Origin: an uncultured virus (IMG/VR IMGVR_UViG_3300049185_000041)
Taxonomy: Duplodnaviria; Heunggongvirae; Uroviricota; Caudoviricetes
Length of the DNA stretch: 20,000 nucleotides
IMG/VR virus record: IMGVR_UViG_3300049185_000041
Strand: one strand, 5' to 3'
Below, piece after piece: positions 2,311 to 19,873 of the stretch. Position numbers and translations under genes: made by a program. Below the pieces are notes generated by a model. It made no database searches, had not been told where the DNA came from, and worked only from the letters and a program-made list of their open reading frames with translations. Numbering within the stretch: the stretch's first letter is position 1; every line of letters starts with the position of its first letter.

Positions 2311-2351
2311 CGTGTAGCTGGGTAGCGTTGTTACTTTGTAGCGTTAGAATG

Positions 2352-5300
2352 TCAATCCCGCTTGTTCAGCGATTTGCGGTTCGTCAAGGCTTTCGCCCGA
2401 TTCCGCAACGCCTGCCAAGCGGCTCGCCCGACAGATGTCGCCACGTTGTTCTTCGCCACCTCTTCGCCCTCGGTCGATCGCAGTCCAAGCCGGGTCTTCG
2501 CCACCTCGACGAGCCCGAGGAAGCTATCGGCGTTGTCCGGGGACCGGCCTTCCCTGTCCTTGTAACTCTTTTTTGGCTCGACTTTCAGCACTCTTGCGTC
2601 ACCTTCGCTCCCTTTCGCGTGCTGGCGGCTGCACAGCTCCTTGGCCAGTTCTTCATTGACGCCGCTGATCTGCCGCGACCGGAATAGCTTCTTCGCGCCA
2701 TACCACAGCTCGGTGGCCTTGTTCGCAAACCGTTCGTGGGCCAGCACCGGTTCGGTGGTGCCGGGCTTCTTGCCGGGCTTCTTCTCGCCCGTGGGCGTCT
2801 TCGAGGCAGGGCCTGCGGAGGTGATGCCGAGCACCGCTGGTGACCACTGCACCTTCACGATGTCGCCGAACGGTTGGCCGCCTCCAGTGGAGTCGTATCC
2901 AGCGTTCTCGGGCTTGATGCCGCGGGCGATGCACATCGCCTTCCAGCCGCGCACGATCTGATAGCTCGGCGGGACGTTGACGTCGTTGACATTCACCTTC
3001 ACCGCCTCGCCGCCGGTACGCACCAGACGCATGACACCGTCGATGTCCTCGCCGCACAGGCCGAAGGTCGCGTACGCGCGGTCACCGCCGGCCGTGAACG
3101 CCGGGTCGAGGAAGCTGCACTTCTCTGGCGGCCGGAACCCCCACACCACGTCGTCGGGAGACTGGCGGGCCCCGGACAATTCGATGTCGGCCGGGGTGTA
3201 GATGCCGGATCCCGCACCGGAAAGGCACCACGTCCCAAGCACCATCCGGTGGTAGAACAGCGAGTCGCGGCCATAATCCTTCTCCATCTGGTCAATCTCG
3301 GCCTTCCGGAGCATCCACGAGTAGCGGTCGTTGCCCTCGGTGATGCGGGGGTTTTTCTCCCCGTTGAAACGAATGCACAGGCCCCCGGACTCGGTCCTCC
3401 ACTCCTCATCACGGATCAGATCGACCTTGTCCCAGCCGCCTTCGGGCTTGGCGGCGAGCCCGAAGGTGTCGTAGGGCAGGTTCGGGTTCCCCAGATAGAT
3501 GACTTGGCAGTGCCCGACATTGCCGGGCTTGAGGTTGGTCTTGACCGCGGTCAGCACCGCCTCGGCGACGCCGGTCGCCTCATCGACGATCAGGATGATC
3601 TTGCCGATCCGGTCCTGGCTGATGTTGTAGAGTCGGGGAACGAGGTCGCGCAGCGTGGCCTCGTCGAAGTGATTGGCGAGGTCCGCGAACTCGGGGTGAG
3701 CCATCAGCCCTTCGAAGCTTTCGTCCGGCTCCCCGGTGCGGGGTGCCTTCATGCCGATGAGCTTGTTCACCGCTTCCTTCTCGGACCCTTGCTCGGCGGC
3801 GAGCAGGAAGATGCCGGTCGATTCCCCGAAGCTGTCGCCCTTGTAGTTGAGCCCGCGAATTTCGTTGGTCGCCCACGCGGGTTTGCCGGGCAAGAAAGGG
3901 ATTCCTTCCCAGTACTCGCGCACGGTCTTCCAGATGCGCTTCTTCGCCTCCTTGATCGAGGTCGACATCACCAGCACCAGCGTGTGCGTCGGATCGGTCG
4001 TGTAGCTCACGACGCCGTAGAGGGCGGCAGGGTCACTGTTGTGGACGACGGTGAAGTCAGCGAGCAGGAAACGGTGGTTACCGTCGACGGAGAAGCCGAC
4101 CCACGGCATATCCCCGGCGGGGGTGAGTTTGACCCCCGTGCAGTCCGAGTTCTGCCTGAGCTTTTTCTCGCGGCACTTCTTCCGGAGCGTCGGGATTTCG
4201 ACGACGTTACCGAAGATCGTGATGCGCCACGAAGGGAACTGCTTGCCTTGGCAGGTCGCCATCCGATGCACCGTCGAGACCCGGAATCCTAGTGACCGAG
4301 CGAGGAACGCGATGTCGTCCTTCAGCCCGGTGAACTTTGTCGCGATCTCGAAGTAAGTCCCTGCGGCATGTCCGTCGGTGTCGATCAGGCCTGCGAGGAG
4401 AAGCATCCGGTTTTTCCGGGAGTTCAGCAGGTAGTGGCGGGGGATCCGCTTCTCCATGTCATCCATCGACGACTTCAGAAACCGCCACAACGGATTGTTA
4501 GACATTCCGGCCGAAACATCACCTTCAGGGAAAACGGCGAAGGTCGGGCAAGTGAGATGCTCGTGGTCATACTCACGCATCTCGTAGCCCTCGTGCTCGC
4601 ACCATGCTTTCACATAGCTGAAAACCTCGGGTTCCGACCGCGGGATCGAGATCCGACACCGATGGCGCGCGCCGTCCCCCAGCCAGATTCCAAACAAGCG
4701 CGGATCCAGTTCGAGTTTCTTCTCGGGGAAATCGACACCAACGCAGAACTGCTTGTAATTGGTGCGGGTTTGTCCACTAGCCGTGTGGTAGTCTTTTGCG
4801 GGTATCTCAATGATCTCTCCGAGACGTCGGCGACTCCTCCCCGAAGCGATCGCTCTCTTCAGGACCAACACATGATCCTCCGTGCAGAACCACGGTTCGC
4901 CGTGGACCGGGGTCACCTTAAACATCGGCCCGACACCGGAATGCACCTCTTGCACGATCCGGGGCGCACTGTCGTCGCCCATCAGGCGATCTCCGGGCTT
5001 TACTTCATCCGCACGCTTGGTAGAACCGTCGTGCATTAGCACTAAGTCGTTGACTGACAAGCACTTACCCGCACTCGTGCATCCTGCGACGCATAGCTCC
5101 GGCTCCTCGCACATCTTCCGGAACATCCGGTTCGCCCAAGGGTTCCAGATGCACCGCTTCATCGACCCCGATGCGGGGTTGTTCCACGTCAGATCTACGT
5201 ATCGCTGGAAGTGGCTAAAACGCCCCAGCCCGCCCTCGTGCTCCTCGTGGCCGATGCGGAAGCACAGCGCCTCGATCTGGATCTGGTCACGGGTGCGATC

Positions 5301-5393
5301 CCCGGTGAGCTGGAAGTAATCCTCGCCGAAGCCGAGGCGCTGGAGGCCGTACCACTGGAGCGGCGGTTGGTCGGGTGCGGGTGCGACGGGCAT
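2352..5393 (-). CDS. terL: Terminase large subunit containing an intein (1013-aa precursor, ~671 aa after splicing)
   Basis: Walker A GCTSAGK/S is split by the intein. Also Walker B IILIVDEA, coupling motif YLGNP, and RNase H-like nuclease motifs FLDPAFTAGGD and SPDNADS. Confidence 0.85.
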   Translation of the reverse strand: MPVAPAPDQPPLQWYGLQRLGFGEDYFQLTGDRTRDQIQIEALCFRIGHEEHEGGLGRFSHFQRYVDLTWNNPASGSMKRCIWNPWANRMFRKMCEEPELCVAGCTSAGKCLSVNDLVLMHDGSTKRADEVKPGDRLMGDDSAPRIVQEVHSGVGPMFKVTPVHGEPWFCTEDHVLVLKRAIASGRSRRRLGEIIEIPAKDYHTASGQTRTNYKQFCVGVDFPEKKLELDPRLFGIWLGDGARHRCRISIPRSEPEVFSYVKAWCEHEGYEMREYDHEHLTCPTFAVFPEGDVSAGMSNNPLWRFLKSSMDDMEKRIPRHYLLNSRKNRMLLLAGLIDTDGHAAGTYFEIATKFTGLKDDIAFLARSLGFRVSTVHRMATCQGKQFPSWRITIFGNVVEIPTLRKKCREKKLRQNSDCTGVKLTPAGDMPWVGFSVDGNHRFLLADFTVVHNSDPAALYGVVSYTTDPTHTLVLVMSTSIKEAKKRIWKTVREYWEGIPFLPGKPAWATNEIRGLNYKGDSFGESTGIFLLAAEQGSEKEAVNKLIGMKAPRTGEPDESFEGLMAHPEFADLANHFDEATLRDLVPRLYNISQDRIGKIILIVDEATGVAEAVLTAVKTNLKPGNVGHCQVIYLGNPNLPYDTFGLAAKPEGGWDKVDLIRDEEWRTESGGLCIRFNGEKNPRITEGNDRYSWMLRKAEIDQMEKDYGRDSLFYHRMVLGTWCLSGAGSGIYTPADIELSGARQSPDDVVWGFRPPEKCSFLDPAFTAGGDRAYATFGLCGEDIDGVMRLVRTGGEAVKVNVNDVNVPPSYQIVRGWKAMCIARGIKPENAGYDSTGGGQPFGDIVKVQWSPAVLGITSAGPASKTPTGEKKPGKKPGTTEPVLAHERFANKATELWYGAKKLFRSRQISGVNEELAKELCSRQHAKGSEGDARVLKVEPKKSYKDREGRSPDNADSFLGLVEVAKTRLGLRSTEGEEVAKNNVATSVGRAAWQALRNRAKALTNRKSLNKRD
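4038..5063 (-). mobile_element. Intein with LAGLIDADG homing endonuclease (342 aa) inside the terL Walker A motif
   Basis: Starts CLSVNDLVLMHDGS after AGK, has block B FCTEDHVL and LAGLIDADG motifs LFGIWLGDG and LLAGLIDTDG, and ends FTVVHN followed by Ser(+1). Confidence 0.93.
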
Positions 5394-5791: not shown

Positions 5792-6117
5792 CTCTTTTTC
5801 GGCGGATGCCGGAATCCGTTCGCGCCGGGCACGATGATCTTCGGCCCCGGATCCTCGACCGGTTTGAGCAATTCGTCGTCGACGAACGCCGGCGACAGCG
5901 GGCCGTGTTCGCGCTGGATGCCGATGACCCACGTCGCCACTTCCTCGCGGCAGGTCTGCGCCGGGTTGCCGGTGCGCTTCATCTCGAAGAGGATCAGCTT
6001 GCGCAGCGAATAGACGAAGCGCGGCGGGGCGTGGAGATCGACGAGTGCACCCAATAAACAGGCGTCGTATGCTTCCGCGAGGCGCGCGGCCTGGGGTTCT
6101 GGAGTCTGATCGGTCAT
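5788..6117 (-). CDS. Hypothetical protein (109 aa)
   Basis: MTDQTPEPQAARLAEAYDACLLG...; ATGA overlaps at both ends. Confidence 0.65.
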   Translation of the reverse strand: MTDQTPEPQAARLAEAYDACLLGALVDLHAPPRFVYSLRKLILFEMKRTGNPAQTCREEVATWVIGIQREHGPLSPAFVDDELLKPVEDPGPKIIVPGANGFRHPPKKR

Positions 6118-6332
6118 TCGGGCGAGGAGTCGGAAGTGGGTTCGGGCGGTGGTGGCTGCGTGGCGGCGATCCGCTGCTCGATCATCGTGCCGATGCTGGC
6201 GATTGCTTCGGCGCGGGTCGGTGCCGTGGCTTCGCCGACGGGGATCACGCCGCGGGTGTAATCGTGGACCTTGGCCAGCACGATGTCGCCGTCGTCGATC
6301 AGCTCGATATTGAATTTGCGTCGGTTCGTCAT
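6114..6332 (-). CDS. Hypothetical protein (72 aa), weak HicB-N-like pattern
   Basis: ATGA-coupled. GEATAPTRAEAIASIGTMIE resembles the G.T.EEA...I motif of HicB N-terminal domains (weak). Confidence 0.55.
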   Translation of the reverse strand: MTNRRKFNIELIDDGDIVLAKVHDYTRGVIPVGEATAPTRAEAIASIGTMIEQRIAATQPPPPEPTSDSSPE

Positions 6333-8987: not shown

Positions 8988-9199
8988 GTCATCTCGTCGA
9001 ATTTCTTCATTACCCGTTCCCACCAGTCCCGGATGTCCAGCACTCCGCCGAACCGGGTTGGCTCGCCCGCCGCCTCCACCGCATCACGGAATTTCTTCCG
9101 GGCAGCGGAGCGGGCCTCTTCAACGACTCCTTTCTCGACGGCTTCGATCAGCGCGAGTTCGGCCGCGGTGGCTTTCGATTTCAGTTCTGCGAGGGTCAT
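8984..9199 (-). CDS. Hypothetical protein (71 aa)
   Basis: Helical charged ORF with ATGA overlaps at both ends. Confidence 0.65.
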   Translation of the reverse strand: MTLAELKSKATAAELALIEAVEKGVVEEARSAARKKFRDAVEAAGEPTRFGGVLDIRDWWERVMKKFDEMT

Positions 9200-9588
9200 G
9201 GGCTTCCGGTGCGCGGGATGTTACCGATCGGGCCGACCTGCTCTGCCGTGCGTGTCACCTTCAGGATTCCCTTGATGGTGAACTGGCGTCGAGCCTCGTG
9301 GCTGCGGGTGAGCTTCTTCCCGCGGCCGTTCTCGTTATACGGCTGGACGGTGACCGTGCCGAAGTGCTGGTAGCCGCGCATGACGTGGCCGCCCGAAACG
9401 GAAATTACGATGCCCTTGCAGTAGCGCCGGGATCCATCGACGACCTCCACTTCATCGCCACCGCGGATGCCGAAGAACTCCTCGGTGACCTTGCGGGCCT
9501 CGCGATTATTGGCTTCCCTCACCGCCTGCGCGGCGGCATCGGACTTCGTCAGTTCCCGGAGACGCCGGGTCGCTTCACGTTTCGTCAT
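9196..9588 (-). CDS. Hypothetical basic protein (130 aa), possible SH3/KOW-like C-terminal half
   Basis: First gene after a promoter and preceded by TCACGCCC-ATG; beta-rich pattern IRGGDEVEVVDG...KGIVISV. Confidence 0.65.
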   Translation of the reverse strand: MTKREATRRLRELTKSDAAAQAVREANNREARKVTEEFFGIRGGDEVEVVDGSRRYCKGIVISVSGGHVMRGYQHFGTVTVQPYNENGRGKKLTRSHEARRQFTIKGILKVTRTAEQVGPIGNIPRTGSP

Positions 9589-10254: not shown

Positions 10255-10920
10255 TCAATCCTTCAGTTCGTCCGGCGTCTCGGTGTTCCGGCTCACGATC
10301 TTCGCCACGCTGCCGTAGCTCCACGGCTTCCCCGTGCGGGTCGGCACTCCGTCCCCATTCAGAACATCGGCGATCTCCTGCATCCGGTAGCCCTCGTCGC
10401 GAAGCGCGATCATCCGTTTCAGGGTGGGTGCTTCTTGGGGGTGGAAGCCGAAGGGCTTGCGGCCTTCGCACCGTCCATCCGCTGTCCTGATCCGGTCCTT
10501 CGCGGCTTTGAGCTTGCGGACGATGCTCGATTTATCGAACTCCGATACCGCGGCGAGGATCTGCCGGATGAGCTTGGCTGTCGGGTTGTCGTTCTCGGTG
10601 AGGTCGTTCCCCGATTCAGCCTCGATCACCGTCACCCCCAGGTCGCGGAACTGGCGCAGCAGGACTTCCGATACGATGAGGTCACGGGCCAGCCGGTCGG
10701 CCTTCTCCACCACCACGATGTCCCCAGAGGACACCGCGGCGAACAACCTCGACAGGGCCGGGCGGGACATCAGGTCGGTGGTGCCGCTGACCCCCTCCTC
10801 CACGAACTCCTCGGTGACCGGCGTCTCGCTCCACTTCTGAATGGCTTCGCGCTGGCGCGGGAACCCGTCGCCGTCGATCTGACCCTTCGAGCTGACCCGC
10901 AAATAAGCTAGAACCTTCAT
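10255..10920 (-). CDS. Serine recombinase (resolvase/invertase family) with C-terminal recombinase-type DNA-binding domain
   Basis: YLRVSSKGQ (catalytic Ser), EEGVSG, RPAL, VVEKADRLARD, and C-terminal IADVLNGDGVPTRTGKPWSYGSVAKIV. Confidence 0.92.
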   Translation of the reverse strand: MKVLAYLRVSSKGQIDGDGFPRQREAIQKWSETPVTEEFVEEGVSGTTDLMSRPALSRLFAAVSSGDIVVVEKADRLARDLIVSEVLLRQFRDLGVTVIEAESGNDLTENDNPTAKLIRQILAAVSEFDKSSIVRKLKAAKDRIRTADGRCEGRKPFGFHPQEAPTLKRMIALRDEGYRMQEIADVLNGDGVPTRTGKPWSYGSVAKIVSRNTETPDELKD

Positions 10921-10958: not shown

Positions 10959-11020
10959 TGGGGATTCGCTACATTACTACACATTTACGGTAGGGGCTGG
11001 GTAGGGTAAATCGAGGTATA

Positions 11021-11068
11021 CCAGTCTGCCAGTCTGCCAGTCTGCCAGTCTGCCAGTCTGCCAGTCTG
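11021..11068. repeat. Tandem octamer (CCAGTCTG)x6
   Basis: Six perfect copies read directly from the sequence. Confidence 0.97.
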
Positions 11069-11637
11069 CAAGTGTAGCGGTGTAGCGGACTACGGGTGAG
11101 GGATTGCGGGGATTTTGGAAGGCGGTGAGCGCCCCGGAATCGCGCTCTGGCGGTGGGGCCGCCCCCTCCCCGGGGTGGTGGGTGCGCCCTAGCGCCGCGC
11201 ATCACCGGCTCGCCTCTCCCCCGCCACAGGGTCCGCGCCAATCCCTCGCACTGGTAGCATTGCGGGCCAGCCATGACACAGGACCAATGCTCGGGGGCAT
11301 TAGCCTATTTCGTGAAACTGGCTAGAGACTGGCTTGCGACCATGCCGGCCCGGCGCTAGGGCGCATAGGATTTGCATGCAAACAGGCGGTGCGCCGGCTC
11401 GCTGGCCCCACTGCTCCGAGCAAGCGGGCGCACCGTTATATATTTCGATATATAAGGCGTGGATCGAGCCCGCCGCACCACCTCACCCCCTCAAAACCGA
11501 TTCCCCGGACTTTGTCCTGCAAAGTTCCAAAATGGCGCGTCAGGTCGGCCCGCGACCATTAATTGCAAATGCAACTAACTTACCATTTCAGGTATTCCGG
11601 GAAACCCCGTTTCCACCCTCCACCACCCCATTTCGAG

Positions 11638-12038
11638 CTGGTAAACTCGGACTGGTAAACTCTGCCAGCTAGTCTGCCAGTTTACCACTCTACCACGAAA
11701 AACCCGAGAACTCTACACCTCTACACCGCCTCGACCATTTCGCTCGATTTGTAGCAGTGTAGAGAAGTCCCCGGAACGCTGGCAGCCTGCCAGACTGGTA
11801 AACTCTCCAAAAGCATGACAGTAGAGTTTACCACATATCACGCCCATTTTCGATTGATCTACGATCTGTTCCATTTCAATCACTTACGAACTACCATCAA
11901 CTACTCTAATTGTCTTTTTGGTAAACTGGTAAACTGGTAAACTAAAGTATTAATATTGGGGGAAAAATATAGAGGGAGAGGATTTGAAAAAATCCCCAGA
12001 AAAAAGAAAGTCCGGCCTCCGAGTCTGCCACTCTGCCA
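11638..12038. repeat. Cluster of TGGTAAAC / TGGCAGAC octamers in both orientations, including (TGGTAAAC)x3 at 11919-11942
   Basis: Copies near 11639, 11653, 11672 (rev), 11680 (rev), 11796, 11826 (rev), 11919-11942 and 12023 (rev). Confidence 0.9.
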
Positions 12039-12073
12039 ATCCTCCAATCTGTAGCAGTGTAGGAGTTGATTCA

Positions 12074-12120
12074 TTTTTCGCGAAAAAAGAATTGCGGTCT
12101 GTTTCCGGCGGGTGTATTCA
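12074..12120 (+). promoter_or_regulatory. Promoter of the rightward (early-like) arm
   Basis: TTGCGG (12092-12097), 17-nt spacer, TATTCA (12115-12120). Preceded by the palindrome TTTTTCGCGAAAAA (12074-12087) in the UP-element position. Confidence 0.55.
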
Positions 12121-12145
12121 TTCCCCCGTCAATCGAAACACGCCA

Positions 12146-12328
12146 ATGAAGACGCTCGAAACCACCCTCTCCGCCATCGCCTACGCACTGCAAACCCCGC
12201 AGCGCGCCCGCCTCCGCCGCAATATTCGCGGATGGATTGGAAAAGCCATCAAAGCCGGCCCCCGCTCTCCGGAATGGGAGTTTGTCGCCAAGTGGAGCTT
12301 CGAACTCCGCATGCTGGAAATCCGCTGA
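12146..12328 (+). CDS. Hypothetical protein (60 aa)
   Basis: MKTLETTLSAIAY...; start defined by CACGCCA-ATG. Confidence 0.65.
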   Translation: MKTLETTLSAIAYALQTPQRARLRRNIRGWIGKAIKAGPRSPEWEFVAKWSFELRMLEIR

Positions 12329-12356
12329 CCTAGAAACCGCTTACCTCACGCCAATC

Positions 12357-12788
12357 ATGAAACACCCCGCCACCTTCGGCCAAGTTCTGCAAGCCATCAA
12401 AGCTTCAGACCTTTGGGACTTCTCACAGGAGTATTCACAAGGCCGGTTTTCCGTTGCCGTCTTCCATGACGATTTCCCGAAAGACCGCCGGCACGTTTAC
12501 CGGATTGAATGGCACCGCGACAACCGGAAGCCTCGCGTCAATCTAACCGTGCTTCGGAAATTCGATGCCGTGAAAAATTGCTGGAATGAGACCGTCCATG
12601 CCGAAAGCGGGTCTTGGTCTCTCCCGGACAAGCGCGGCGAGAAAGCCCTTGTCGGCTTCATTAAGGAAACCAGCAAGCGCCACGGCAAAGCCCCCAACCC
12701 GTCGTTCTTCTCTTTCCACCGCGCCACGGAAGACCGGGTCGCCATGGAGGAAGCCAATCTCGCGAAAGCCTTTCAAGGGCGTCTCTGA
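12357..12788 (+). CDS. Hypothetical protein (143 aa)
   Basis: MKHPATFGQVLQAIK...; start defined by CTCACGCCAATC-ATG. Confidence 0.7.
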   Translation: MKHPATFGQVLQAIKASDLWDFSQEYSQGRFSVAVFHDDFPKDRRHVYRIEWHRDNRKPRVNLTVLRKFDAVKNCWNETVHAESGSWSLPDKRGEKALVGFIKETSKRHGKAPNPSFFSFHRATEDRVAMEEANLAKAFQGRL

Positions 12789-12817
12789 TTCCCCGCAACC
12801 TCTTACTCACGCCAATC

Positions 12818-13063
12818 ATGAAAACAGAAGCCAGTCCGAAGTTCCGCAATAAAAACGGCACCCTTACAGCCTACGCTTTCGCTTGCGGCTACCTTGAGAC
12901 CCGCGAAAAGAATGGTGTTAAAGTCACCCTTGAGCGGGACTCCGCATGCTGGCACGTCAAGACGTGGGACAGCGTGGAAAAGGTCCGCCGCGCATGGGAA
13001 AGCGTCACCCTTCTAACGGACGCTCGGAAGGAATTCCGGCGGCAGTGCAAAACCTTTCTCTAG
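12818..13063 (+). CDS. Hypothetical phage protein (81 aa)
   Basis: CTCACGCCAATC-ATG start; contains GTLTAYAFACGYLE. Confidence 0.75.
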   Translation: MKTEASPKFRNKNGTLTAYAFACGYLETREKNGVKVTLERDSACWHVKTWDSVEKVRRAWESVTLLTDARKEFRRQCKTFL

Positions 13064-13101
13064 CCCTCTCCTCCCCGCCAGCCGCGCACGCCCGGCCTCC
13101 C

Positions 13102-13164
13102 GCTTTCCTTGCATTGGCGTGCAATAGACTCACCTGCCCTTGGCCTAGCCGGGGGCGGGTCGAG
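13102..13164 (+). ncRNA. Second copy of the anti-start-motif RNA element
   Basis: GCUUUCC-UUGCA-UUGGCG-UGCAA-UAGACUC-ACCUGCCCUUGGC-CUA-GCCGGGGGCGGGU-CGAG; same loop and two-hairpin layout as 6688-6756. Confidence 0.6.
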
Positions 13165-13234
13165 CCGGCGGGAGAACAGGGGTATGACGCCCCGGTCTCG
13201 CCGCAGTCCAGAAAACCAGTAAAATTCGCACGCC

Positions 13235-15088
13235 ATGAAGAATCCCGACCTATTCGACGAACGCCACGAAGCGACCTATTGCCCGGAAGACGACAAGTTG
13301 CGCCTCTACGTCGGTCGCGTCCCCCGCGACCAGTACGAAGCCCTACGCGCCGAAGGGTGGACCAGCACACCGAAACAGGATTGCGACTTTGCGGCGGTCT
13401 GGACGGTGGACCGTGAGAACACCGCGCTTTCCTTTGCCGGGGTGATTGGCGACGAGGACCAGAGCCCGCAGGACCGCGCCGCCGACCGCGCCGAACGCTT
13501 CGCCGGCTACCGGGACAAGCGCACCATGGAAGCCGGTGGCCACGCTGACCGGTACGACGCCGGGCCGTCCGCGCATGGCTATCAATCGCAAGCCCGTGCC
13601 GACCGTGCCGCCGCCCGGCATGACCGCATCGCCGACCGCGCTGTCAATGCATGGGACAAGGCGGACTACTGGACAAGCCGCACCGCTGGGGTGATTTCGC
13701 ACGCGCTGTACCGGTCTCGCCCCGATGTTCGCATGGGGCGCATCAAGGTCATTGAATCCGACCTGCGGAGGGCAAGCAAAGGCTTTGAGGATGCCGCGGA
13801 GCATCACCGCACGGTTGCCGCGATCGCCGCGGACCCCGACGGCGCGGCGATGGACCTTGTCCGCCGCTATTACAACGCCGCGGACCTCGCGCCGGAGGAA
13901 TTGGAGAACGTCCGCGACAAGGCCTCCAATGACCTGATTTCGGTCATTTGCGGACATGGCAAGGTGCGCAACCCATTGAACCCGGAAGCCCCGGCGGCCT
14001 ACCCCTTTGAGCATCGCCGCGAGGCGAACCCGCCCACGGTCTCGGACTACGCGAAACAGTGGCTCGCCGCTCACGCTGCCCCGGAAACCGACGCTTGGCA
14101 GATGACCGGAACGGCCCGGTACATCCGCCACTTGCAGCATCGCATTGCCTATGAAAATCAAATGCTGGAAGCGCAAGGCGGGCGGGAAGCTTTTACCGAA
14201 ATGGAAGCCGGCGGGATGCTCGGGACATACCTTGTCGTCCGGGTCTACAAGTCCCCGGCCACCGGTCGCGTGACTTCGGTCGATCTACTCCGCAAGGACA
14301 AGCCGACGGAACGCGAGTGGGGCGCGAAGAGGATCCCCGGCACGGATTTCTACCTTTGCCGGATTGACACGGAACGCTTGCCCGCCGGCACCTACGCCGC
14401 CCCCACGGATGAAAGCCGCGCTGAACTCGCCGCCCTGGATGCCGCGAAGAAAGAGCAACGCAAGGGAGCCGCGAAAGCCGCGCCGCTGGTCAATCCGACG
14501 TTGGAAGACGCGCAACGCTTGCAGGACCTCTTGAACGCCCGCCACCGGGCCGCATGGGTGAAGGTGCACGGCGAGCCGCGGGAAGGGTCCAGCCATCAGC
14601 CGGAACGCTCGGAGGTCTGCAAGGTGACGCAAGTGGTTTACTCCGCCAATTCCAAGGGGAGCTATTCCCGGGCGGAAACGGTGGAGTATTTCGCCGACGG
14701 TCAGGAACGCCGGAATCCCAGCCGCCGCGAGTCTCCGGTATGGGCACTCCGGCACGGCCCGGCAGTCTGCAAGCTCCGTGTCTCCGGCTACTCACCGCGC
14801 CGCGTGGTGTTCCTGACTGACAAGCCCGCCAAGGCCTTGCCCGCGGCGATCTGGTCCCCCTACCCGGACGCCCCGACGGCGGAGCAACTGCGGCCCCGTC
14901 TCGCTGAAATTCAAGCCGCCGTTTCCGCGGAGTATAACCGGCAGGACCTCACCCCGGAACAAGTGGACCTTTTGAACCGTTCGGCCGCGGTCGGCTGGAC
15001 CACGCATGAAAGCTACCGCCGCCAATGGACGGACGCCGGCATTGCGGAAGCCCGTGCCGCCGAAGTCATTGGCAAGGCCATCGTCTAA
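13235..15088 (+). CDS. DUF3560-like protein (617 aa)
   Basis: N-terminus ATYCPEDDKLRLY...PKQ...WT..RE...IGDED.S...RA..RAERF.GY..KR and HGYQSQARADR...KADYW resemble DUF3560 proteins of mobile elements; lies next to a methyltransferase. Confidence 0.7.
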   Translation: MKNPDLFDERHEATYCPEDDKLRLYVGRVPRDQYEALRAEGWTSTPKQDCDFAAVWTVDRENTALSFAGVIGDEDQSPQDRAADRAERFAGYRDKRTMEAGGHADRYDAGPSAHGYQSQARADRAAARHDRIADRAVNAWDKADYWTSRTAGVISHALYRSRPDVRMGRIKVIESDLRRASKGFEDAAEHHRTVAAIAADPDGAAMDLVRRYYNAADLAPEELENVRDKASNDLISVICGHGKVRNPLNPEAPAAYPFEHRREANPPTVSDYAKQWLAAHAAPETDAWQMTGTARYIRHLQHRIAYENQMLEAQGGREAFTEMEAGGMLGTYLVVRVYKSPATGRVTSVDLLRKDKPTEREWGAKRIPGTDFYLCRIDTERLPAGTYAAPTDESRAELAALDAAKKEQRKGAAKAAPLVNPTLEDAQRLQDLLNARHRAAWVKVHGEPREGSSHQPERSEVCKVTQVVYSANSKGSYSRAETVEYFADGQERRNPSRRESPVWALRHGPAVCKLRVSGYSPRRVVFLTDKPAKALPAAIWSPYPDAPTAEQLRPRLAEIQAAVSAEYNRQDLTPEQVDLLNRSAAVGWTTHESYRRQWTDAGIAEARAAEVIGKAIV

Positions 15089-15137
15089 CACCAACCCCCG
15101 GCGGCGGGGCTCCGGTCTCGCCGCCACTTCTCACGCC

Positions 15138-15809
15138 ATGAACCCGCCCGACCTCTCCCGCCTCCACACCCTCCGCGATGCCAATGATTTGCACGCGGCC
15201 ACCATGGAGTTAAACCGCGGACGCTTCGAAGCCCTCCGCACTCGCCATGAGGACGGCACCGCGCCGCGTGCGGTCTCCGCATACCAGCTTTTCCAGACCC
15301 CGCCGGCACTGGCGGCCCGCATGGTGGAGCTGGCCGAAGTAAAGCCCGGGGACGTGCTGCTTGAACCGTCCGCCGGTCTTGGCAGGATCATTGACCCGGC
15401 GCTTGCGGCGGGTGCCCGGGTCCTCGCCGTCGAGGTCTCGCCGGACCTTTCGGGCGAGCTTTTCCGGGCATACGAAGGGAAGGACGTGAGGCTATTGCAG
15501 CGCGACTTTCTGACCGTCCGGCCAGCCTATGAAGGCAACGCCGCGCTTATCGTGAAGGACCTCGCGGAAGTCCGCATTGACCGCGTGGTGATGAACCCGC
15601 CGTTTCACATGCGGGCGGACATTGCCCACGTAAGGCACGCGCTGCGATTCCTCCGCCCCAGTGGCGTCCTGGTCGGCTTGTGCCTGTCCACCCGCCACCG
15701 CACGGAAGCCCTGCAACCGCTCGCCGACCTGTGGGAAGTCATTCCCGCCGGGACGTTCAAGGGCGAGGGCACGAACGTCGAAACGGTCTTGTTCCGCATC
15801 ACTGGCTAA
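15138..15809 (+). CDS. SAM-dependent methyltransferase, N6-adenine DNA MTase-like (223 aa)
   Basis: QLFQTP, motif I LLEPSAGLG, AVE, DFL and catalytic motif IV VMNPPF; start at CTCACGCC-ATG. Confidence 0.85.
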   Translation: MNPPDLSRLHTLRDANDLHAATMELNRGRFEALRTRHEDGTAPRAVSAYQLFQTPPALAARMVELAEVKPGDVLLEPSAGLGRIIDPALAAGARVLAVEVSPDLSGELFRAYEGKDVRLLQRDFLTVRPAYEGNAALIVKDLAEVRIDRVVMNPPFHMRADIAHVRHALRFLRPSGVLVGLCLSTRHRTEALQPLADLWEVIPAGTFKGEGTNVETVLFRITG

Positions 15810-15822
15810 CATCCGCACGCCA

Positions 15823-15876
15823 ATGAAAACGCATCCAACACCACTCCCGGTCTCCATAACAGAAATCACGCCATGA
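15823..15876 (+). CDS. Possible 17-aa minigene MKTHPTPLPVSITEITP
   Basis: Has its own CACGCCA-ATGAA motif, and its stop overlaps the next ATG (ATGA). Confidence 0.4.
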   Translation: MKTHPTPLPVSITEITP

Positions 15877-16187
15877 AAACCTTTTACTTCAATACGGGCG
15901 TCCGGCCCCACGCTCACACGCCCCCGGTCAAATTGAGCCCCGGGCAAGTCATGAGGGGCGGCACGATGCAAATACCTTTCGACTGTGAGGGCGTGCCTGA
16001 GGGTGCGACCTTCGACCACGGAAGCGACAATCCGGAGCCCGGATACCCGGGCGAGATTGTCCGCGAGATCCACAACTCCGCCTTGGTCTCGAAATACGCG
16101 CACTTCCGCCCGCCGGTCTCCCCGGAGCCACACCCCTACGTCCAGAAGTCACTCCGCGGGGAGCAACCCAGCCACCCTTGGAAGTAA
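15873..16187 (+). CDS. Hypothetical protein (104 aa)
   Basis: ATCACGCC-ATG start. Confidence 0.7.
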   Translation: MKTFYFNTGVRPHAHTPPVKLSPGQVMRGGTMQIPFDCEGVPEGATFDHGSDNPEPGYPGEIVREIHNSALVSKYAHFRPPVSPEPHPYVQKSLRGEQPSHPWK

Positions 16188-16196
16188 CCCCTTTCC

Positions 16197-16264
16197 AACC
16201 CCCGCCCGGTCTCCGCAATGCACGGCCTTTGCATCCCAGCATGTAAGGGGCCGGGCGGGTTTTA
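16197..16264 (+). terminator. Long stem-loop followed by a U-tract (terminator-like or processing hairpin)
   Basis: CCCGCCCGGTCTC (16201-16213) pairs with GGGGCCGGGCGGG (16247-16259), followed by TTTTT. Confidence 0.5.
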
Positions 16265-16292
16265 AACCTCTCACCTGATAGAAATTGAAACC

Positions 16293-16694
16293 ATGAAACC
16301 GCACCTTAATATCCTGCTTTCCCTCGGAAACCCTATTCGCTCGAAATCCGGGGAGGCTATTGGGCTTTCCACCTTTCACCCGAATGAGAATCATCAACAT
16401 GGTGATGATCCGGCAGAGAATCCGTCGCAATGGGAAGAGACGGTTGCGGAAGTTCTCGACGGGGGTCCGCCGGGGGTCATGGAAGACCAAGCGGCCCGCA
16501 TCCGCGACACTTGGAACGCCTGCCACGGTCTCGACCTCCCGGCGGACGTGGAACCCGGCATCCTCGCGGACCTTGTGATGGTCTCCGGGGACATGGTGCG
16601 GAGCATCGGGGATGATTCCCTGACAGTTTACCATGGAACCAAGCTCGCGAACCTCCTTGCCAAGCTCGCACCGGTCTCCCCGTCGCCGCAATGA
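16293..16694 (+). CDS. Hypothetical protein (133 aa), paralogous in part to 18812..19342
   Basis: Shares AC.GLDLP.D..PGILA.LV...LA..LAKLAP with the other gene. Confidence 0.7.
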   Translation: MKPHLNILLSLGNPIRSKSGEAIGLSTFHPNENHQHGDDPAENPSQWEETVAEVLDGGPPGVMEDQAARIRDTWNACHGLDLPADVEPGILADLVMVSGDMVRSIGDDSLTVYHGTKLANLLAKLAPVSPSPQ

Positions 16695-16786
16695 CCCCCT
16701 CCCCCGAAATCCCGTTTGCTCGTTCCATTGCCGCATGCATCGCGGCCGGCTGGGGCGTCATTTGTGCCGCGATGCTGTATCTCTAA
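16691..16786 (+). CDS. Small hydrophobic protein (31 aa; not in the ORF track)
   Basis: MTPSPEIPFARSIAACIAAGWGVICAAMLYL*; ATGA overlap; fills the intergenic gap. Confidence 0.55.
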   Translation: MTPSPEIPFARSIAACIAAGWGVICAAMLYL

Positions 16787-16797
16787 CACCTCACGCC

Positions 16798-17055
16798 ATG
16801 AAAGGAAAGCCGTTCAACTACCCGGGGAGGGTTTCCCGCAAAACAAAGGTTCATTCCTTTTGCAGTCAAATGCGCCGGAAGCTGGTCCGCTCGGGAACTC
16901 TCAATCTCGCCACCGGCAAAACGGACCTGCCTAATGAGGAGTGGCGGGATGAACCATGTGGAACCCCGCTTTTCACGGACGGGGAGCGCCAATCCGGAAT
17001 CTGCAAATCATGCGCCGGAGGATGGACGCACCCGGAAAACTCCCTGCTGCCATGA
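16798..17055 (+). CDS. Hypothetical Cys-containing protein (85 aa), possible zinc ribbon
   Basis: CTCACGCC-ATG start; HSFC...PCG...GICKSC. Confidence 0.7.
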   Translation: MKGKPFNYPGRVSRKTKVHSFCSQMRRKLVRSGTLNLATGKTDLPNEEWRDEPCGTPLFTDGERQSGICKSCAGGWTHPENSLLP

Positions 17056-17195
17056 ACCGCCCCCGCCGCGCCGCCCTTCACCGGGGCATCCTCCACGCCC
17101 TGCCGCTGTCCATTATCCTGTGGGGCGGTCTCGCCGGGGCCGCCTATGCCGTCACCCGCGTCATTCTGACAATCACGAACCAATTCACGCCATGA
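17052..17195 (+). CDS. Small single-TM protein (47 aa)
   Basis: MNRPRRAALHRGILHALPLSIILWGGLAGAAYAVTRVILTITNQFTP; ATGA overlaps at both ends. Confidence 0.65.
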   Translation: MNRPRRAALHRGILHALPLSIILWGGLAGAAYAVTRVILTITNQFTP

Positions 17196-17440
17196 ATACC
17201 CAGATGCAATCCCAGGTCGCCGCAAAGCTGACCGAACTTAAAGCCGGTCTCCCCTCCACCGTGGAGAAGATCGAAACCGAAATCCGCCAATGGCGGGAGA
17301 CTCGCGACTACTGCCGCGACAAAGGCAACAAGTCGGCGGCGGAAGACGCGGAGGCTGCCGCCGTCGCGTTCATTGAAATCCTGCCGCCCCGCGTCAAGGC
17401 GGACTACACCGCCCCCGCTTGGATGTACGGTAGACTCTGA
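17192..17440 (+). CDS. Hypothetical protein (82 aa)
   Basis: MNTQMQSQVAAK...; TTCACGCC-ATG start. Confidence 0.7.
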   Translation: MNTQMQSQVAAKLTELKAGLPSTVEKIETEIRQWRETRDYCRDKGNKSAAEDAEAAAVAFIEILPPRVKADYTAPAWMYGRL

Positions 17441-17482
17441 CCGGCTTCCCGGTCTCCATTTAATCGCTAACAACCTCACGCC

Positions 17483-17797
17483 ATGAAAACGAAAGTCATC
17501 TTCCGCAAGTTCAAATCCGACGGCGAGATCCTCGCCCTGTTTCCCGAAGTCCCGCACGACCGCATGGGGGACTTCTGTGTCAGCTACGCCCACGTAGGGC
17601 AGCACGGGGCCGCGAGCCCGGTCTTGACCGGCACCACGAGCCCGGCAACCCCGGAAGAGAGCGCACCGCTTAAGCGCGAAATCGAAAGCCTTGGGTATGA
17701 CCTGGAAGTCTGCCGGCGGGTTTCGTTCAAGATGGACAAGGCACGCCGGGAAGCCGCACGCCAAAACCGCAACCCTAGCCCGGTCCCCACGCCATGA
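17483..17797 (+). CDS. Conserved-looking phage hypothetical protein (104 aa)
   Basis: VIFRKF...GEILALFP...SYAHVGQHG...ATPEE..PLKREIESLGY, a pattern I recall from phage early regions; motif start. Confidence 0.8.
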   Translation: MKTKVIFRKFKSDGEILALFPEVPHDRMGDFCVSYAHVGQHGAASPVLTGTTSPATPEESAPLKREIESLGYDLEVCRRVSFKMDKARREAARQNRNPSPVPTP

Positions 17798-18540
17798 ATG
17801 CAACCCTTTCACTTCCGACCATGGACAAGCCTCCCGTCTCTTCCCTCCGCACGCTCTCCGGCATCCGCAAGGTGGCCGATTGGCTTAAGCATCGTGCCGA
17901 CTCCGGCCAATGCCCGGAGACCTGGAAGCCGGGCGTCACGCCGCCGGTCTCGTTCGGCCCGTTCAAGATCCACGACAACATCACGGCCCTCTGGCGGGCT
18001 GCCGAGCTACTGCGAAGCAATGCCACCTACTCCGGGTCTCGCGGCAGCACGGCGATCCCCGATAGCGTGTGGAGTCTGCAAGCCGTCCGCGCCTACGGCA
18101 GCCCGGAAGCCGGTCTCGCGGCCATCCGGCGGCAGCTTGCCATTCAAGCCTGTGACATGGACCCGGCGGACGTGAAGCGATGCGAACGGGCCGCATGCAT
18201 GATCGAGCGGCACCTTGCGGAAGAGGCCGAATTGAAACGCGACATGGAAGAGGCGGAAGCGGAGGCCGCGGTGTTCAAGGCCGCCCGGCCAGCAGACCCG
18301 GACGCCCCGCCGACCATCGGCAGCACGGTTTACGTTTCAGCCGCGGGCCGCGCATGGAAAGGAACCGTGCTGGGGGTAGCTAACAAGCGCGATGCCGTCC
18401 TGGGGAAGACAGTCCCGCATGTTCAAGTTCAGCTTACCCATCGCCGGGAAACCGATGGCCGGAAGATCTACGGCTTCCACCCCGGCAAGGGTCTCGTGAA
18501 ACGCTGGGAGCCCTGCCGCTACGTCCTAGTTCCATCCTAG
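17794..18540 (+). CDS. Hypothetical protein (248 aa)
   Basis: CCCACGCC-ATG start with ATGA overlap; C-terminal SH3-like pattern IGSTVYVS...WKGTVLGV. Confidence 0.7.
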   Translation: MNATLSLPTMDKPPVSSLRTLSGIRKVADWLKHRADSGQCPETWKPGVTPPVSFGPFKIHDNITALWRAAELLRSNATYSGSRGSTAIPDSVWSLQAVRAYGSPEAGLAAIRRQLAIQACDMDPADVKRCERAACMIERHLAEEAELKRDMEEAEAEAAVFKAARPADPDAPPTIGSTVYVSAAGRAWKGTVLGVANKRDAVLGKTVPHVQVQLTHRRETDGRKIYGFHPGKGLVKRWEPCRYVLVPS

Positions 18541-18811
18541 CCCGGTCTCCCGGCCACCCCATCGCATGCGCCCCGCTCCCGGTGACACGGCAGCGGGGCA
18601 AAGGGGTGATGAAAGGCAACTCCATGAAGTGACCCCATAGCAGCCGGGCTGTGAGCCGGCACGCAAAGCCCCGGACAACCGGGCAACTATGACCCTGATT
18701 AATCGCCGCCCCGCGCAAGGGGAGAATCCGAACCGCCTCCGGCTGCCATCGTGCGGCCGGGGGCTCCGGCAGTAGAGGCCATCCCGGTCTCGCTTGAACC
18801 ATACTCACGCC

Positions 18812-19342
18812 ATGAAACTCGGAGCTTACAGACAGAACGACACCACGATCAATCTATTGGACCGCGACACCGGAGAGGACGTCGCCTCCCGCGCCCATGA
18901 ACCCGGGAAAGAGGATGAGACTTATGAAGCCCTCATGCCCCTCTGCAACGCCGTCTCCGCCTGCGATGGCCTCGACCTCCCGGAAGACTGTCCGCCGGGC
19001 ATCCTTGCGGAACTTGTGACCGCCGCCCGCGAGCTTGCCAACACCATTACCGGCTTCGGGATGAAATGCCCGAACGTCCCTATCCGGGTCGAAGGGGAGA
19101 CCCTTGCGGCCATCCTCGCCAAGCTCGCGCCCGCCGGCAGCCCGGACAACGGGAAGCCGGTCTCGCCGCCGGAGCCTCGCCCACAACTCCCCTTCGAAAA
19201 AGAAGTGCTGAATCCGGACGGCACCTTCAAGGCCGGACTCGGAGACACCACTGAGCCCACGGAATCCGGCGTCCGCTATCCCGAAGGGCAACCCAGCGGT
19301 CACGGTCACACGCCGCTGGAACACCGCATTGCCAACTACTGA
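18812..19342 (+). CDS. Hypothetical protein (176 aa), paralogous in part to 16293..16694
   Basis: CTCACGCC-ATG start; shared GLDLP/PGILA/LAKLAP module. Confidence 0.7.
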   Translation: MKLGAYRQNDTTINLLDRDTGEDVASRAHEPGKEDETYEALMPLCNAVSACDGLDLPEDCPPGILAELVTAARELANTITGFGMKCPNVPIRVEGETLAAILAKLAPAGSPDNGKPVSPPEPRPQLPFEKEVLNPDGTFKAGLGDTTEPTESGVRYPEGQPSGHGHTPLEHRIANY

Positions 19343-19456
19343 AACTCTCCGGGAGCCCCGATGGGAACTCGCCCTTCAAGGAGGGCAGGAACTGGGACGG
19401 AAGTCCGGTTCACGGGGCTCCCGGTCTCCACTCTCACCAATAGAAATCACGCCACT

Positions 19457-19873
19457 ATGAACACGAAACAATTCTCGCTCGCACAAGTCCTCTCCATCAC
19501 CACTAGCCGCCTTTGCTGCGACATGGGCAGCATCTACGAGATACTGAACCACATCACCGGGGACAACCTCTTCACGCATGTCCTGCCGCGTGCTGCAAGG
19601 TTCGCCGCCCCTCTCATTCTTGAGGACCACCCGGAACTCAAGCCCGCGGGCGCGTGTCTCGACAGTTTGGACCGCTGGCTGGCCAGCGACCGGACTCCCG
19701 AGAAAAGCGAGGGCATTAAAATGTGGCTCGCCGAACTCCGGATGATGTTCCCGGACATCAAGCCGGAATATGAAATCCGAAGCTACTCGGACGCATGGCT
19801 GTCACTGAACCCGCTCGATGAACTGGCTGCGATGGCAGGGCCGGAGAAGATCGTCGTAGTCGAGAAAGCCTAA
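19457..19873 (+). CDS. Conserved-looking phage hypothetical protein (138 aa)
   Basis: FSLAQVLSITTSRL...IYEILNHITGDNLFTHVLPRA; ATCACGCCACT-ATG start. Confidence 0.8.
   Translation: MNTKQFSLAQVLSITTSRLCCDMGSIYEILNHITGDNLFTHVLPRAARFAAPLILEDHPELKPAGACLDSLDRWLASDRTPEKSEGIKMWLAELRMMFPDIKPEYEIRSYSDAWLSLNPLDELAAMAGPEKIVVVEKA

Follow-up and report, generated by a model that had tools for sequence, protein, structure and literature searches.

Short words that punctuate phage genes on one strand are already known from several systems. In Cluster K mycobacteriophages, the start-associated sequence (SAS) is a 13-bp asymmetric word that stands 3-7 bp before start codons, mostly ATG, in one orientation and only in the non-structural half of the genome; it is kept before unrelated gene families, is absent from host genomes, and in about half of the cases is accompanied by a second upstream element (PMC3203893, in its accessible sections). 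The function of SAS and of the extended start-associated sequence (ESAS) was still described as needing experimental verification in 2025 (PMC12699233, in its accessible sections). In Cluster A mycobacteriophages such as L5 and Bxb1, stoperators are asymmetric sites, present in 20-30 copies and oriented with transcription, which lie mostly outside promoters and in some cases inside genes, and whose consensus is phage-specific (PMC6550527, in its accessible sections). Here we describe a word of this general kind, the octamer CCGGTCTC, in a 20,000-nucleotide stretch of DNA from IMG/VR virus record IMGVR_UViG_3300049185_000041 (hereafter the window), which belongs to an uncultured soil phage of bacteria of the Planctomycetes-Verrucomicrobia-Chlamydiae (PVC) group. 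None was found described for this host phylum in the literature searched. To our knowledge, the gene-expression signals of phages of Verrucomicrobia, Lentisphaerae and relatives are essentially unknown.

The late genes of the window run leftward, a repeat-rich zone lies mid-window, and the early genes run rightward; the octamer belongs to this rightward arm. It occurs in 15 exact copies on the plus strand between 13192 and 19428, at a density in the arm of 2.4 per kb, with no copy on the minus strand of the window and none in the 13 kb to the left of 13192. The original prediction, made by a model from the letters alone, had listed the same 15 positions (13192 to 19421) and had reported none in the left arm or on the other strand, all of which proved exact. 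Dinucleotide-preserving shuffles of the whole window, counted on both strands (n = 200), gave a mean of 1.44 copies and a maximum of 5, and 15 copies were reached in 0/200. The predicted chance expectation of well under one copy therefore holds for one strand of the arm and fails for the whole window with both strands (1.4), while the count of 15 plus and 0 minus against 1.44 expected bears out the enrichment and the strand skew; an even spread over both strands was found neither in the window nor in the relative G007, introduced below. The core GGTCTC follows the same polarity, with 24 occurrences on the plus strand from 13194 on (the 15 octamers and 9 others, where about 10 had been predicted) vs two on the minus strand (17917 and 19097); together with those at 12588 and 12896, the latter account for the roughly four GAGACC noted before. 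One-mismatch variants of CCGGTCTC are only mildly enriched (63 vs 33.5 expected), the base right after it is G or C in every copy, and the aligned copies show no flank conservation beyond this G or C. Hence CCGGTCTC(S) is a sharp 8-9-mer element.

Seven of the 15 copies lie within coding sequences, as had been supposed for "others" of them. They start at codon positions 1, 1, 1, 1, 2, 2 and 3 (frames 4:2:1), using all three reading frames, and encode Pro-Val-Ser four times, Ala-Gly-Leu twice and Arg-Ser-Arg once. When the codons of 11 arm genes were shuffled synonymously, with each protein sequence preserved (1000 runs), the mean was 1.14 octamers and the maximum 5, and the observed seven were reached in 0/1000; Pro-Val-Ser codon usage alone thus does not account for the polar signal. 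An extended form, GGAAGCCGGTCTCGC, occurs at 18110 and 19157 in two different frames, and again in G007 at 5291. Since codon usage fails to explain the copies and GGAAGCCGGTCTCGC recurs in different frames, CCGGTCTC is kept at the nucleotide level. Against codon usage stands also the spelling of four of the five Pro-Val-Ser peptides of the arm with the exact octamer letters. A word without function, left by codon usage, protein motifs or a recent duplication, would find support in the four copies that encode Pro-Val-Ser, two of which (16671 and 19157) occupy matching places of the paralogues g7 and g13. This explanation is contradicted by the synonymous-shuffle result and by recurrence of the pattern in G007, a phage with only about five small genes in common; the three frames and the eight non-coding copies also stand against it, and we give it next to no probability. 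The octamer is a real, selected sense-strand cis-acting signal, specific to one arm.

The placement of the copies ties the word to gene boundaries. Eight octamers fall within 918 nt of intergenic DNA, and seven of the eight gaps from 13064 onward are occupied; the eighth gap has no octamer of its own, and a copy lies 24 nt upstream of it, within the end of g7 (gene labels g1-g15 are our own naming). Octamer density in intergenic DNA is about nine times that inside genes. Six copies had been predicted to begin 26-43 nt upstream of a CACGCC-type ATG, and the distances were confirmed at all six: 43, 26, 26, 34, 28 and 36 nt for the copies at 13192, 15112, 15847, 17449, 18784 and 19421, respectively. 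Measured from the octamer end, the ATG follows after 18-35 nt, or after 79 nt at 16206. Twelve right-arm open reading frames (ORFs) of at least 60 aa (12139-19459, plus strand) have the start word itself, (T)CACGCC(A)ATGAA, directly at their start codon; the first arm genes use the variant CACGCCAAT(C)ATG and later genes CACGCCATG. No Shine-Dalgarno sequences were found in the gene starts listed for the window phage and G007. The elements of the arm are as follows.

12146..13063, plus strand: first three arm genes, g1 (60 aa), g2 (143 aa) and g3 (81 aa), with CACGCCAAT(C)ATG starts and no octamer.
13229..19459, plus strand: (T)CACGCC-ATG start word, found at 10 gene starts within the octamer zone and forming the second part of the gene-unit pattern.
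13192..13199, plus strand: octamer copy 1, the first in the arm, in the gap after g3, 43 nt before ATG 13235 (g4); it follows two strong hairpins, and its leader resembles that of the first copy of G007, at 1534.
13711..13718, plus strand: octamer copy 2, inside g4 (13235-15088), codon position 3 (YRSR).
15112..15119, plus strand: octamer copy 3, g4/g5 gap, 26 nt before ATG 15138; its letters supply the loop and 3' arm of an 11-bp hairpin that includes two G-U pairs.
15847..15854, plus strand: octamer copy 4, g5/g6 gap, 26 nt before ATG 15873, with no hairpin.
16113..16120, plus strand: octamer copy 5, inside g6 (15873-16187), codon position 1 (PVSP).
16206..16213, plus strand: octamer copy 6, g6/g7 gap, in the 5' arm of a terminator-like 13-bp hairpin that is followed by TTTT.
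16671..16678, plus strand: octamer copy 7, at the 3' end of g7, codon position 1 (PVSP), 20 nt before ATG 16691 of a conserved 31-aa hydrophobic ORF.
17244..17251, plus strand: octamer copy 8, inside g10 (17192-17440), codon position 2 (AGLP).
17449..17456, plus strand: octamer copy 9, g10/g11 gap, 34 nt before ATG 17483, in the 3' arm of a small hairpin, GACCGG-cttc-CCGGTC.
17944..17951, plus strand: octamer copy 10, inside g12 (17794-18540), codon position 1 (PVSF).
18110..18117, plus strand: octamer copy 11, inside g12, codon position 2 (AGLA), extended form GGAAGCCGGTCTCGC.
18542..18549, plus strand: octamer copy 12, 2 nt past the stop of g12, opening a non-coding stretch of 271 nt.
18784..18791, plus strand: octamer copy 13, 28 nt before ATG 18812.
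19157..19164, plus strand: octamer copy 14, inside g13 (18812-19342), codon position 1 (PVSP), extended form GGAAGCCGGTCTCGCCGC, also at G007 5291.
19421..19428, plus strand: octamer copy 15, g13/g14 gap, 36 nt before ATG 19457, at the 3' foot of a long hairpin.

Gene-proximal copies stand between two kinds of predicted RNA. The 50 nt upstream of them frequently form a strong hairpin, and the 50 nt downstream rank near the unstructured extreme of the arm (percentiles 0.86-1.00), so that the leaders downstream of the octamer are unstructured, have no Shine-Dalgarno sequence and end in TCACGCC-ATG. In about five of the eight intergenic gaps the octamer is itself partly paired in a hairpin that includes G-U pairs, and one gap has no hairpin. 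The claim that the copies often sit at the 3' foot of a hairpin accordingly stands for about five of the eight intergenic copies and falls for the rest, and no secondary structure common to the octamer copies was found.

A search of IMG/VR with a gapped pattern (octamer, 10-22 nt, TCACGCCATG) returned 13 loci, 12 of which had 0-3 octamers per strand; the remaining one, L060, had eight on the plus strand and one on the minus strand. Its record, G007, comprises 47,903 bases and is rated 85% complete (L068 denotes its first 20 kb). In G007 the octamer occurs 8+/1- at 1534-5298, inside the leading 5.3 kb, vs 2+/4- across the 42.6 kb that follow, and the sense strand of the block of mostly co-oriented genes at 5.3-29 kb has no copies. 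L068 contains 10 matches vs 1.57 expected, a number reached in 0/200 shuffles. The first four genes of the G007 arm have no octamer, and the first ~1.1 kb of both arms is octamer-free. G007 also has 12 TCACGCC-type ATG starts, all on the plus strand (L068 352-7425 and 15797; L069 4595). Its arm holds early genes, its late genes lie on the minus strand without the octamer signal, and other plus-strand genes include a T7-like replication set (primase, exonuclease, gp2.5-like single-stranded DNA-binding protein, DNA polymerase A, helicase and amidase). The suggestion that the octamer is a polar signal specific to this gene class is therefore strengthened, in that a divergent phage repeats the word and confines it to the same kind of arm.

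Gene content is shared to a small extent only. At the protein level, likeness between the window and G007 was found for g1 (72% identity), the 31-aa hydrophobic ORF (60%), the start of g15 (47% over 32 aa) and a 130-aa KOW-like protein (55%); two non-coding stretches are also common to both phages. G007 lacks both DUF3560 and the g5 methylase. In the gap of copy 6 (16206) and the homologous G007 gap (2049), the octamer occupies the same place in a hairpin whose arm sequences differ, and in the non-coding stretch of copy 13 (18784) and its G007 homologue, the octamer lies on opposite sides of a common CTTGAAC. Because its place in homologous gaps can shift, what is conserved between the phages is the presence of the octamer in the gap, not an inherited position. 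Across both phages, the seventh base after the octamer is a purine in 19/23 copies (uncorrected p 0.0011, ~44 flank positions).

Two further proteins of these phages deserve mention. The KOW-like protein (9196-9588, minus strand, and L068 15797-16186) has a long N-terminal helix, a KOW/SH3-like small barrel and a CACGCC-type start; only three homologues were found among 5.8 billion proteins, and its predicted structure, a helix and a small beta-barrel (predicted local distance difference test score 66), gave no fold match. The first ORF of G007 (L068 10-258), cut by the contig end, is of the LuxR/GerE helix-turn-helix type with a weak match to sigma-70 region 4; it immediately precedes the octamer arm, and no homologue of it occurs in the window.

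Other relatives were sought through the DUF3560 protein of the arm, which yielded 42 loci. In the 25 of these that reach 6 kb, neither strand had more than one octamer, and the DUF3560 and methylase genes are all that they have in common with the window. A k-mer scan of the DUF3560 loci found a comparable word in L039 only, a 6950-base contig of a Victivallales genome bin with DUF3560, methylase and portal-like genes, in which (AAA)CCGTTACG occurs 19 times on the plus strand and never on the minus strand. Eleven of these fall outside coding sequence, several at 14-27 nt from a downstream ATG, and the other eight share one frame of the DUF3560 gene. The exact 11-mer has 15 copies in the 3.8-Mb bin, 14 of them on the phage contig and one elsewhere, so such words can be phage-private rather than host-wide. 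In other loci, only single chance matches to the L039 word were found among the matches listed (108 loci), and no shared upstream k-mers were found. Candidate analogues were rejected in L003 and L005, whose polar words are tandem iterons rather than dispersed copies, and in L007, where CCGCGCCG looks compositional. Within L039, five word copies lie within 130 bp at 6080-6201, just before a small ORF and the portal-like gene. Upstream of the first word copy, a 280-aa protein (794-1636) has a stretch that may resemble the ATDGxRLA motif of sliding clamps.

In five PVC genome bins, the octamer is present 60-233 times per strand in 3.5-6.8 Mb (~1 per 8-50 kb) and without strand bias, for contigs that are unoriented and bins none of which is known as host; this density is background-like and far below that of the arm. 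One Verrucomicrobia bin had 13 pairs of octamer and CACGCC vs 0 in the control, and 0/13 of these stretches continue to an ATG. IMG/VR searches found no relatives of the C-terminal part of the terminase large subunit or of the g12 protein, and only G007 for g1 and the KOW-like protein. A literature search for CCGGTCTC returned only cloning primers among the matches listed.

An asymmetric exact word that belongs to one gene class, is present in nearly every gap and survives gene turnover argues for a gene-expression signal read by a conserved factor. We consider CCGGTCTC a gene-unit expression signal, most likely a promoter-like core. In its more specific form, which we put forward tentatively as plausible but short of probable, the octamer would be the class-specific, single-element, -10-like promoter core of a delayed-early arm and would be read by a dedicated factor. 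The octamer-free first three genes would be expressed first, from a host-type promoter; a sequence-specific factor common to both phages would then read the octamer during transcription, and each later small gene unit would be started afresh a few bases downstream of its own copy. The candidate reader may be the product of the conserved first gene g1, a 60-aa protein for which a bundle of three helices, the middle one rich in arginine, is predicted; a different immediate-early protein or a virion protein could also fill this role. It need not be the DUF3560/methylase pair, given that G007 lacks both. The octamer-free first three (window) and four (G007) arm genes are as expected for such a cascade. 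The promoter-like reading gains support from the position of the one-strand word of L039, 14-27 nt before several ATGs; the purine at the seventh base after the octamer, at the usual distance from a -10 element to the start, is a weak hint in the same direction.

Several observations weigh against a promoter. No -35-like or other second block at fixed spacing was found around the copies. Neither the 20-kb window nor the 47.9 kb of G007 yielded a gene for a sigma-like factor or an RNA polymerase, and the 2069-aa protein of G007 gave no match to solved RNA polymerases and has no DxDxD motif. The predicted fold of g1 is a plain bundle with no informative fold match, and the protein has no Pfam family, no PDB match at E <= 0.001 and no ESM Atlas match. 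Five of the seven in-gene octamers are far from any downstream start and are weakly explained by the model; the distance from octamer to ATG is variable, and the G-U-paired, RNA-type hairpins that hold the octamer in about five of the eight gaps are not needed by a promoter read in DNA. In a bolder version, which we regard as speculative and on the unlikely side, the octamer and TCACGCC-ATG would form a two-part gene-unit code of PVC phages, in which g1 or a co-injected protein redirects the host transcription or translation machinery and the word is swapped by lineage (CCGGTCTC here, AAACCGTTACG in L039).

The in-gene copies would be useful, and are explained well, if the octamer were instead a stoperator-like site, an asymmetric repressor or silencer site that blocks elongation in one direction and keeps the early arm silent, for instance in a lysogen. 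Like the sites published for Cluster A (PMC6550527, in its accessible sections), the octamer is asymmetric, co-oriented with transcription, mostly intergenic with some copies in genes, and phage-specific; moreover, a serine recombinase gene adjoins the arm in the window, and the LuxR/GerE-type gene lies just upstream of the arm in G007. However, that gene has no window homologue, the recombinase ORF is short (221 aa), and G007, with 47.9 kb and a T7-like replication set, has no integrase. No repressor was identified, the octamer is limited to one arm rather than genome-wide and has 8-9 bp instead of 13, and there is none at or before the first arm genes, where an L5-type early promoter has its operator. 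We consider such a site possible but unlikely. A similar, low likelihood is assigned to a site that acts at the RNA level, where CCGGUCUC in early transcripts would be recognised by a protein or an RNA. It would either mark where the polycistronic RNA is cut, leaving each unit with a hairpin at its 3' end and a free leader, or help ribosomes to load, as a recruiting or standby site, on genes lacking a Shine-Dalgarno sequence. Reading in RNA gives one-strandedness automatically, and it suits the position of the octamer at the border of structured upstream and unstructured downstream RNA, the G-U pairs (which make its hairpins RNA hairpins), and the co-occurrence with TCACGCC-ATG in two phages lacking Shine-Dalgarno sequences. 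Precedents exist in T7, whose early RNA is cut by RNase III at intergenic hairpins, and in T4, whose RegB cuts GGAG in early leaders. Conversely, genes hold an excess of copies where a cleavage site would be expected to be avoided; a Victivallales 16S ribosomal RNA has no complement to the octamer, wobble pairs included; and Rfam was empty in the window. No nuclease or RNA-binding domain was identified. Antitermination of the lambda N/nut type, which the original prediction had also proposed, fits poorly, since copies lie inside or after the intergenic hairpins and not before them. Its suggestion of a guide RNA carrying GAGACCGG fares no better within the window, where no such RNA gene is possible because the plus strand has no GAGACCGG.

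Polar DNA signals apart from gene expression form another group, comprising a Chi-like exonuclease stop on first-entering DNA, a T5-like nick site, or a guide for a translocase or packaging. They would account for an exact, one-stranded octamer found in genes in all frames and flexibly placed within gaps, the intergenic preference reflecting only cheap places to write it, and an enzyme of a shared host would explain the same word in two phages with different genes. Yet the word is restricted to ~5-6 kb and is missing from 24 kb more of co-oriented G007 genes, and the first ~1.1 kb of both arms, which would most need protection, is free of it. The L039 analogue occurs only once elsewhere in its bin, the intergenic density is ~9x that in genes, and the five PVC bins carry the octamer at only ~1 per 8-50 kb with no strand bias, although bias is not judgeable on unoriented contigs and none of these bins is known to be that of the host. 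The Chi-like or host-site reading of the original prediction is therefore judged less likely, and polar DNA signals as a group seem improbable. More doubtful still is an effect of restriction-modification, either as the one-orientation bias of an asymmetric Type III-like site or as the target of the adenine methylase g5. One-orientation site sets do escape Type III cleavage, as with T7 and EcoP15I, the complement of the octamer contains AGACC and carries adenines, and a small N6-adenine-methylase-like gene lies in the arm (15138-15809). Nevertheless, avoidance gives orientation, not a 10-fold excess or a 9-fold intergenic preference; G007 has the octamer without the g5 methylase and DUF3560, and the 25 DUF3560-relative loci, most with an adjoining methylase gene, have at most one octamer per strand. 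This effect is very improbable as the source of the pattern.

The remaining content of the window places the arm in context. The left arm (1-11 kb, minus strand) encodes a large-terminase-like ATPase, a BCS1-like AAA ATPase, a DUF3307 membrane protein and the short serine recombinase. The terminase-large-subunit-like ATPase (2352-5393, minus strand, 1013 aa) contains an intein with Hint and homing-endonuclease domains straight after its Walker A lysine (GCTSAGK|C), and the PHROG matches of this product to "terminase" and "primase" cover the intein part only. The serine recombinase ORF (10255-10920, minus strand) has a Resolvase domain and the beginning of a Recombinase domain; it is short for a phage integrase and may be truncated or split. 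Between the arms, at 11.0-12.1 kb, lies a non-coding zone rich in short repeated words, both tandem and dispersed, with CCAGTCTG six times in tandem at ~11022-11070, the 8-mers GGTAAACT, and GTGTAGCG/CTACAC; the tandem unit agrees with the octamer at 6/8 positions. This zone (11000-12100) could serve as an origin or partition site, or could be the region of a genome end, and the ORF at 10969-11274 (minus strand), which crosses the tandem array, is probably not a gene.

The right arm has ~15 small co-oriented genes from 12146 on, and only three family matches were found among them: DUF3560 (g4), a small N6-adenine-methylase-like protein (g5) and DUF7736 (g14). The first two (13235-15809, plus strand) form a two-gene module, met again in phages and in genome bins from several PVC lineages, and relatives of g4 were found in genome bins of Verrucomicrobia, Victivallales/Lentisphaerae and Kiritimatiellia and in IMG/VR contigs. 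The module also has weak DNA matches on conjugative plasmids of Betaproteobacteria, annotated as DUF3560 and methyltransferase proteins; BLAST of the window gave no phage match and no plasmid matches other than these weak ones. Among the literature matches listed, nothing bore on the function of DUF3560. By eye, g7 (16293-16694) and g13 are paralogues with the common segments C(H/D)GLDLP..PGILA(D/E)LV and LAKLAP, and an octamer lies near the second shared segment in each. The 271-nt non-coding stretch (18541-18811) carries hairpins, is partly homologous to a 293-nt stretch of G007 (L068 3149-3441) that ends in a clear terminator, and had no Rfam match; in both stretches a hairpin is followed by GGCAGTAGA. 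It may be a small phage RNA. Scans of the window for Rfam families, tRNAs, promoters and terminators gave nothing above chance. The window sequence is present unchanged in several soil metagenomes, with identical contigs in four soil DNA runs, which showed no usable ends or joints, and no RNA run listed among the sequencing runs that carry it. An exact 49-mer search gave no match in IMG/VR or the genome collection. An identical g1 protein is recorded on a 76,263-base contig, from which the window would be about a quarter of the phage; g1 homologues also lie on contigs of 62.8 kb and 24.9 kb.

An exact octamer that labels a single temporal gene class, and that outlasts a nearly total exchange of genes between two phages, has several uses. 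It makes the start or silencing of early genes in such phages, and the identity of a small early reader protein, open to test. In related metagenomic phage contigs, the octamer and TCACGCC-ATG together can help to locate the early arm and to set gene starts right. If the two-part code were true, it would represent a new, minimal take-over switch in a host that does not use Shine-Dalgarno pairing.

Among described systems, the T4 late promoter TATAAATA, read by gp55/gp33, is likewise a lone 8-bp word that has many copies, frequently within upstream genes, points the same way as one gene class and depends on a phage-made factor. In contrast, the octamer is GC-rich, and no sigma-like factor was found in the 20 of ~76 kb and in G007, 85% complete. 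The promoter early stem-loop (PeSL) cassettes of T4-type phages, each with a host sigma-70 early promoter and a stem-loop, are also repeated, hairpin-bearing regulatory units between small, fast-changing early genes, shared though the intervening genes differ; they are longer and include the sigma-70 promoter, whereas here 8-9 nt are conserved and hairpins accompany some copies only. Chi resembles the octamer as an exact, polar, frame-independent word of eight bases, but Chi is common along the whole host chromosome, where its orientation is skewed, and is tied to no single gene class, while G007 has only 2+/4- in the 42.6 kb outside its first 5.3 kb; the octamer is also very dense for a host-wide Chi-type site. 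Lambda N/nut differs in having its site before terminators and a boxB hairpin, where our copies lie within or after hairpins and have no common hairpin. The Type III bias of T7 and EcoP15I is one of orientation without enrichment, as opposed to the ~10-fold excess over shuffles seen here, which is highest between genes.

SAS and ESAS are closer. The window and G007 share with them a short asymmetric word in one orientation in the non-structural part, a tie to gene starts, mostly ATG, and conservation across divergent genomes before unrelated gene families, which for SAS spans subclusters (PMC3203893, in its accessible sections). SAS stands 3-7 bp from the start and has a Shine-Dalgarno core, whereas the octamer ends 18-35 nt before the ATG; the near-start position is that of TCACGCC-ATG, and the octamer is a different kind of second element. 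ESAS is a pair of 17-bp imperfect inverted repeats, in contrast to the single 8-9-nt asymmetric word here. Furthermore, 7/15 octamers lie in genes, and the hosts are PVC bacteria with no visible use of Shine-Dalgarno sequences. The stoperator offers the other close parallel, that of an asymmetric site in one orientation (15+/0- in the window and 8+/1- in the G007 arm). It has 13 bp, is spread genome-wide, includes an operator in the early lytic promoter and has a known repressor (PMC6550527, in its accessible sections), vs 8-9 bp in one arm and none at the arm head. With the octamer, the still unexplained SAS/ESAS and stoperator-type words of mycobacteriophages gain an example from a distant phylum, which suggests that one-strand words punctuating genes are a general phage device.

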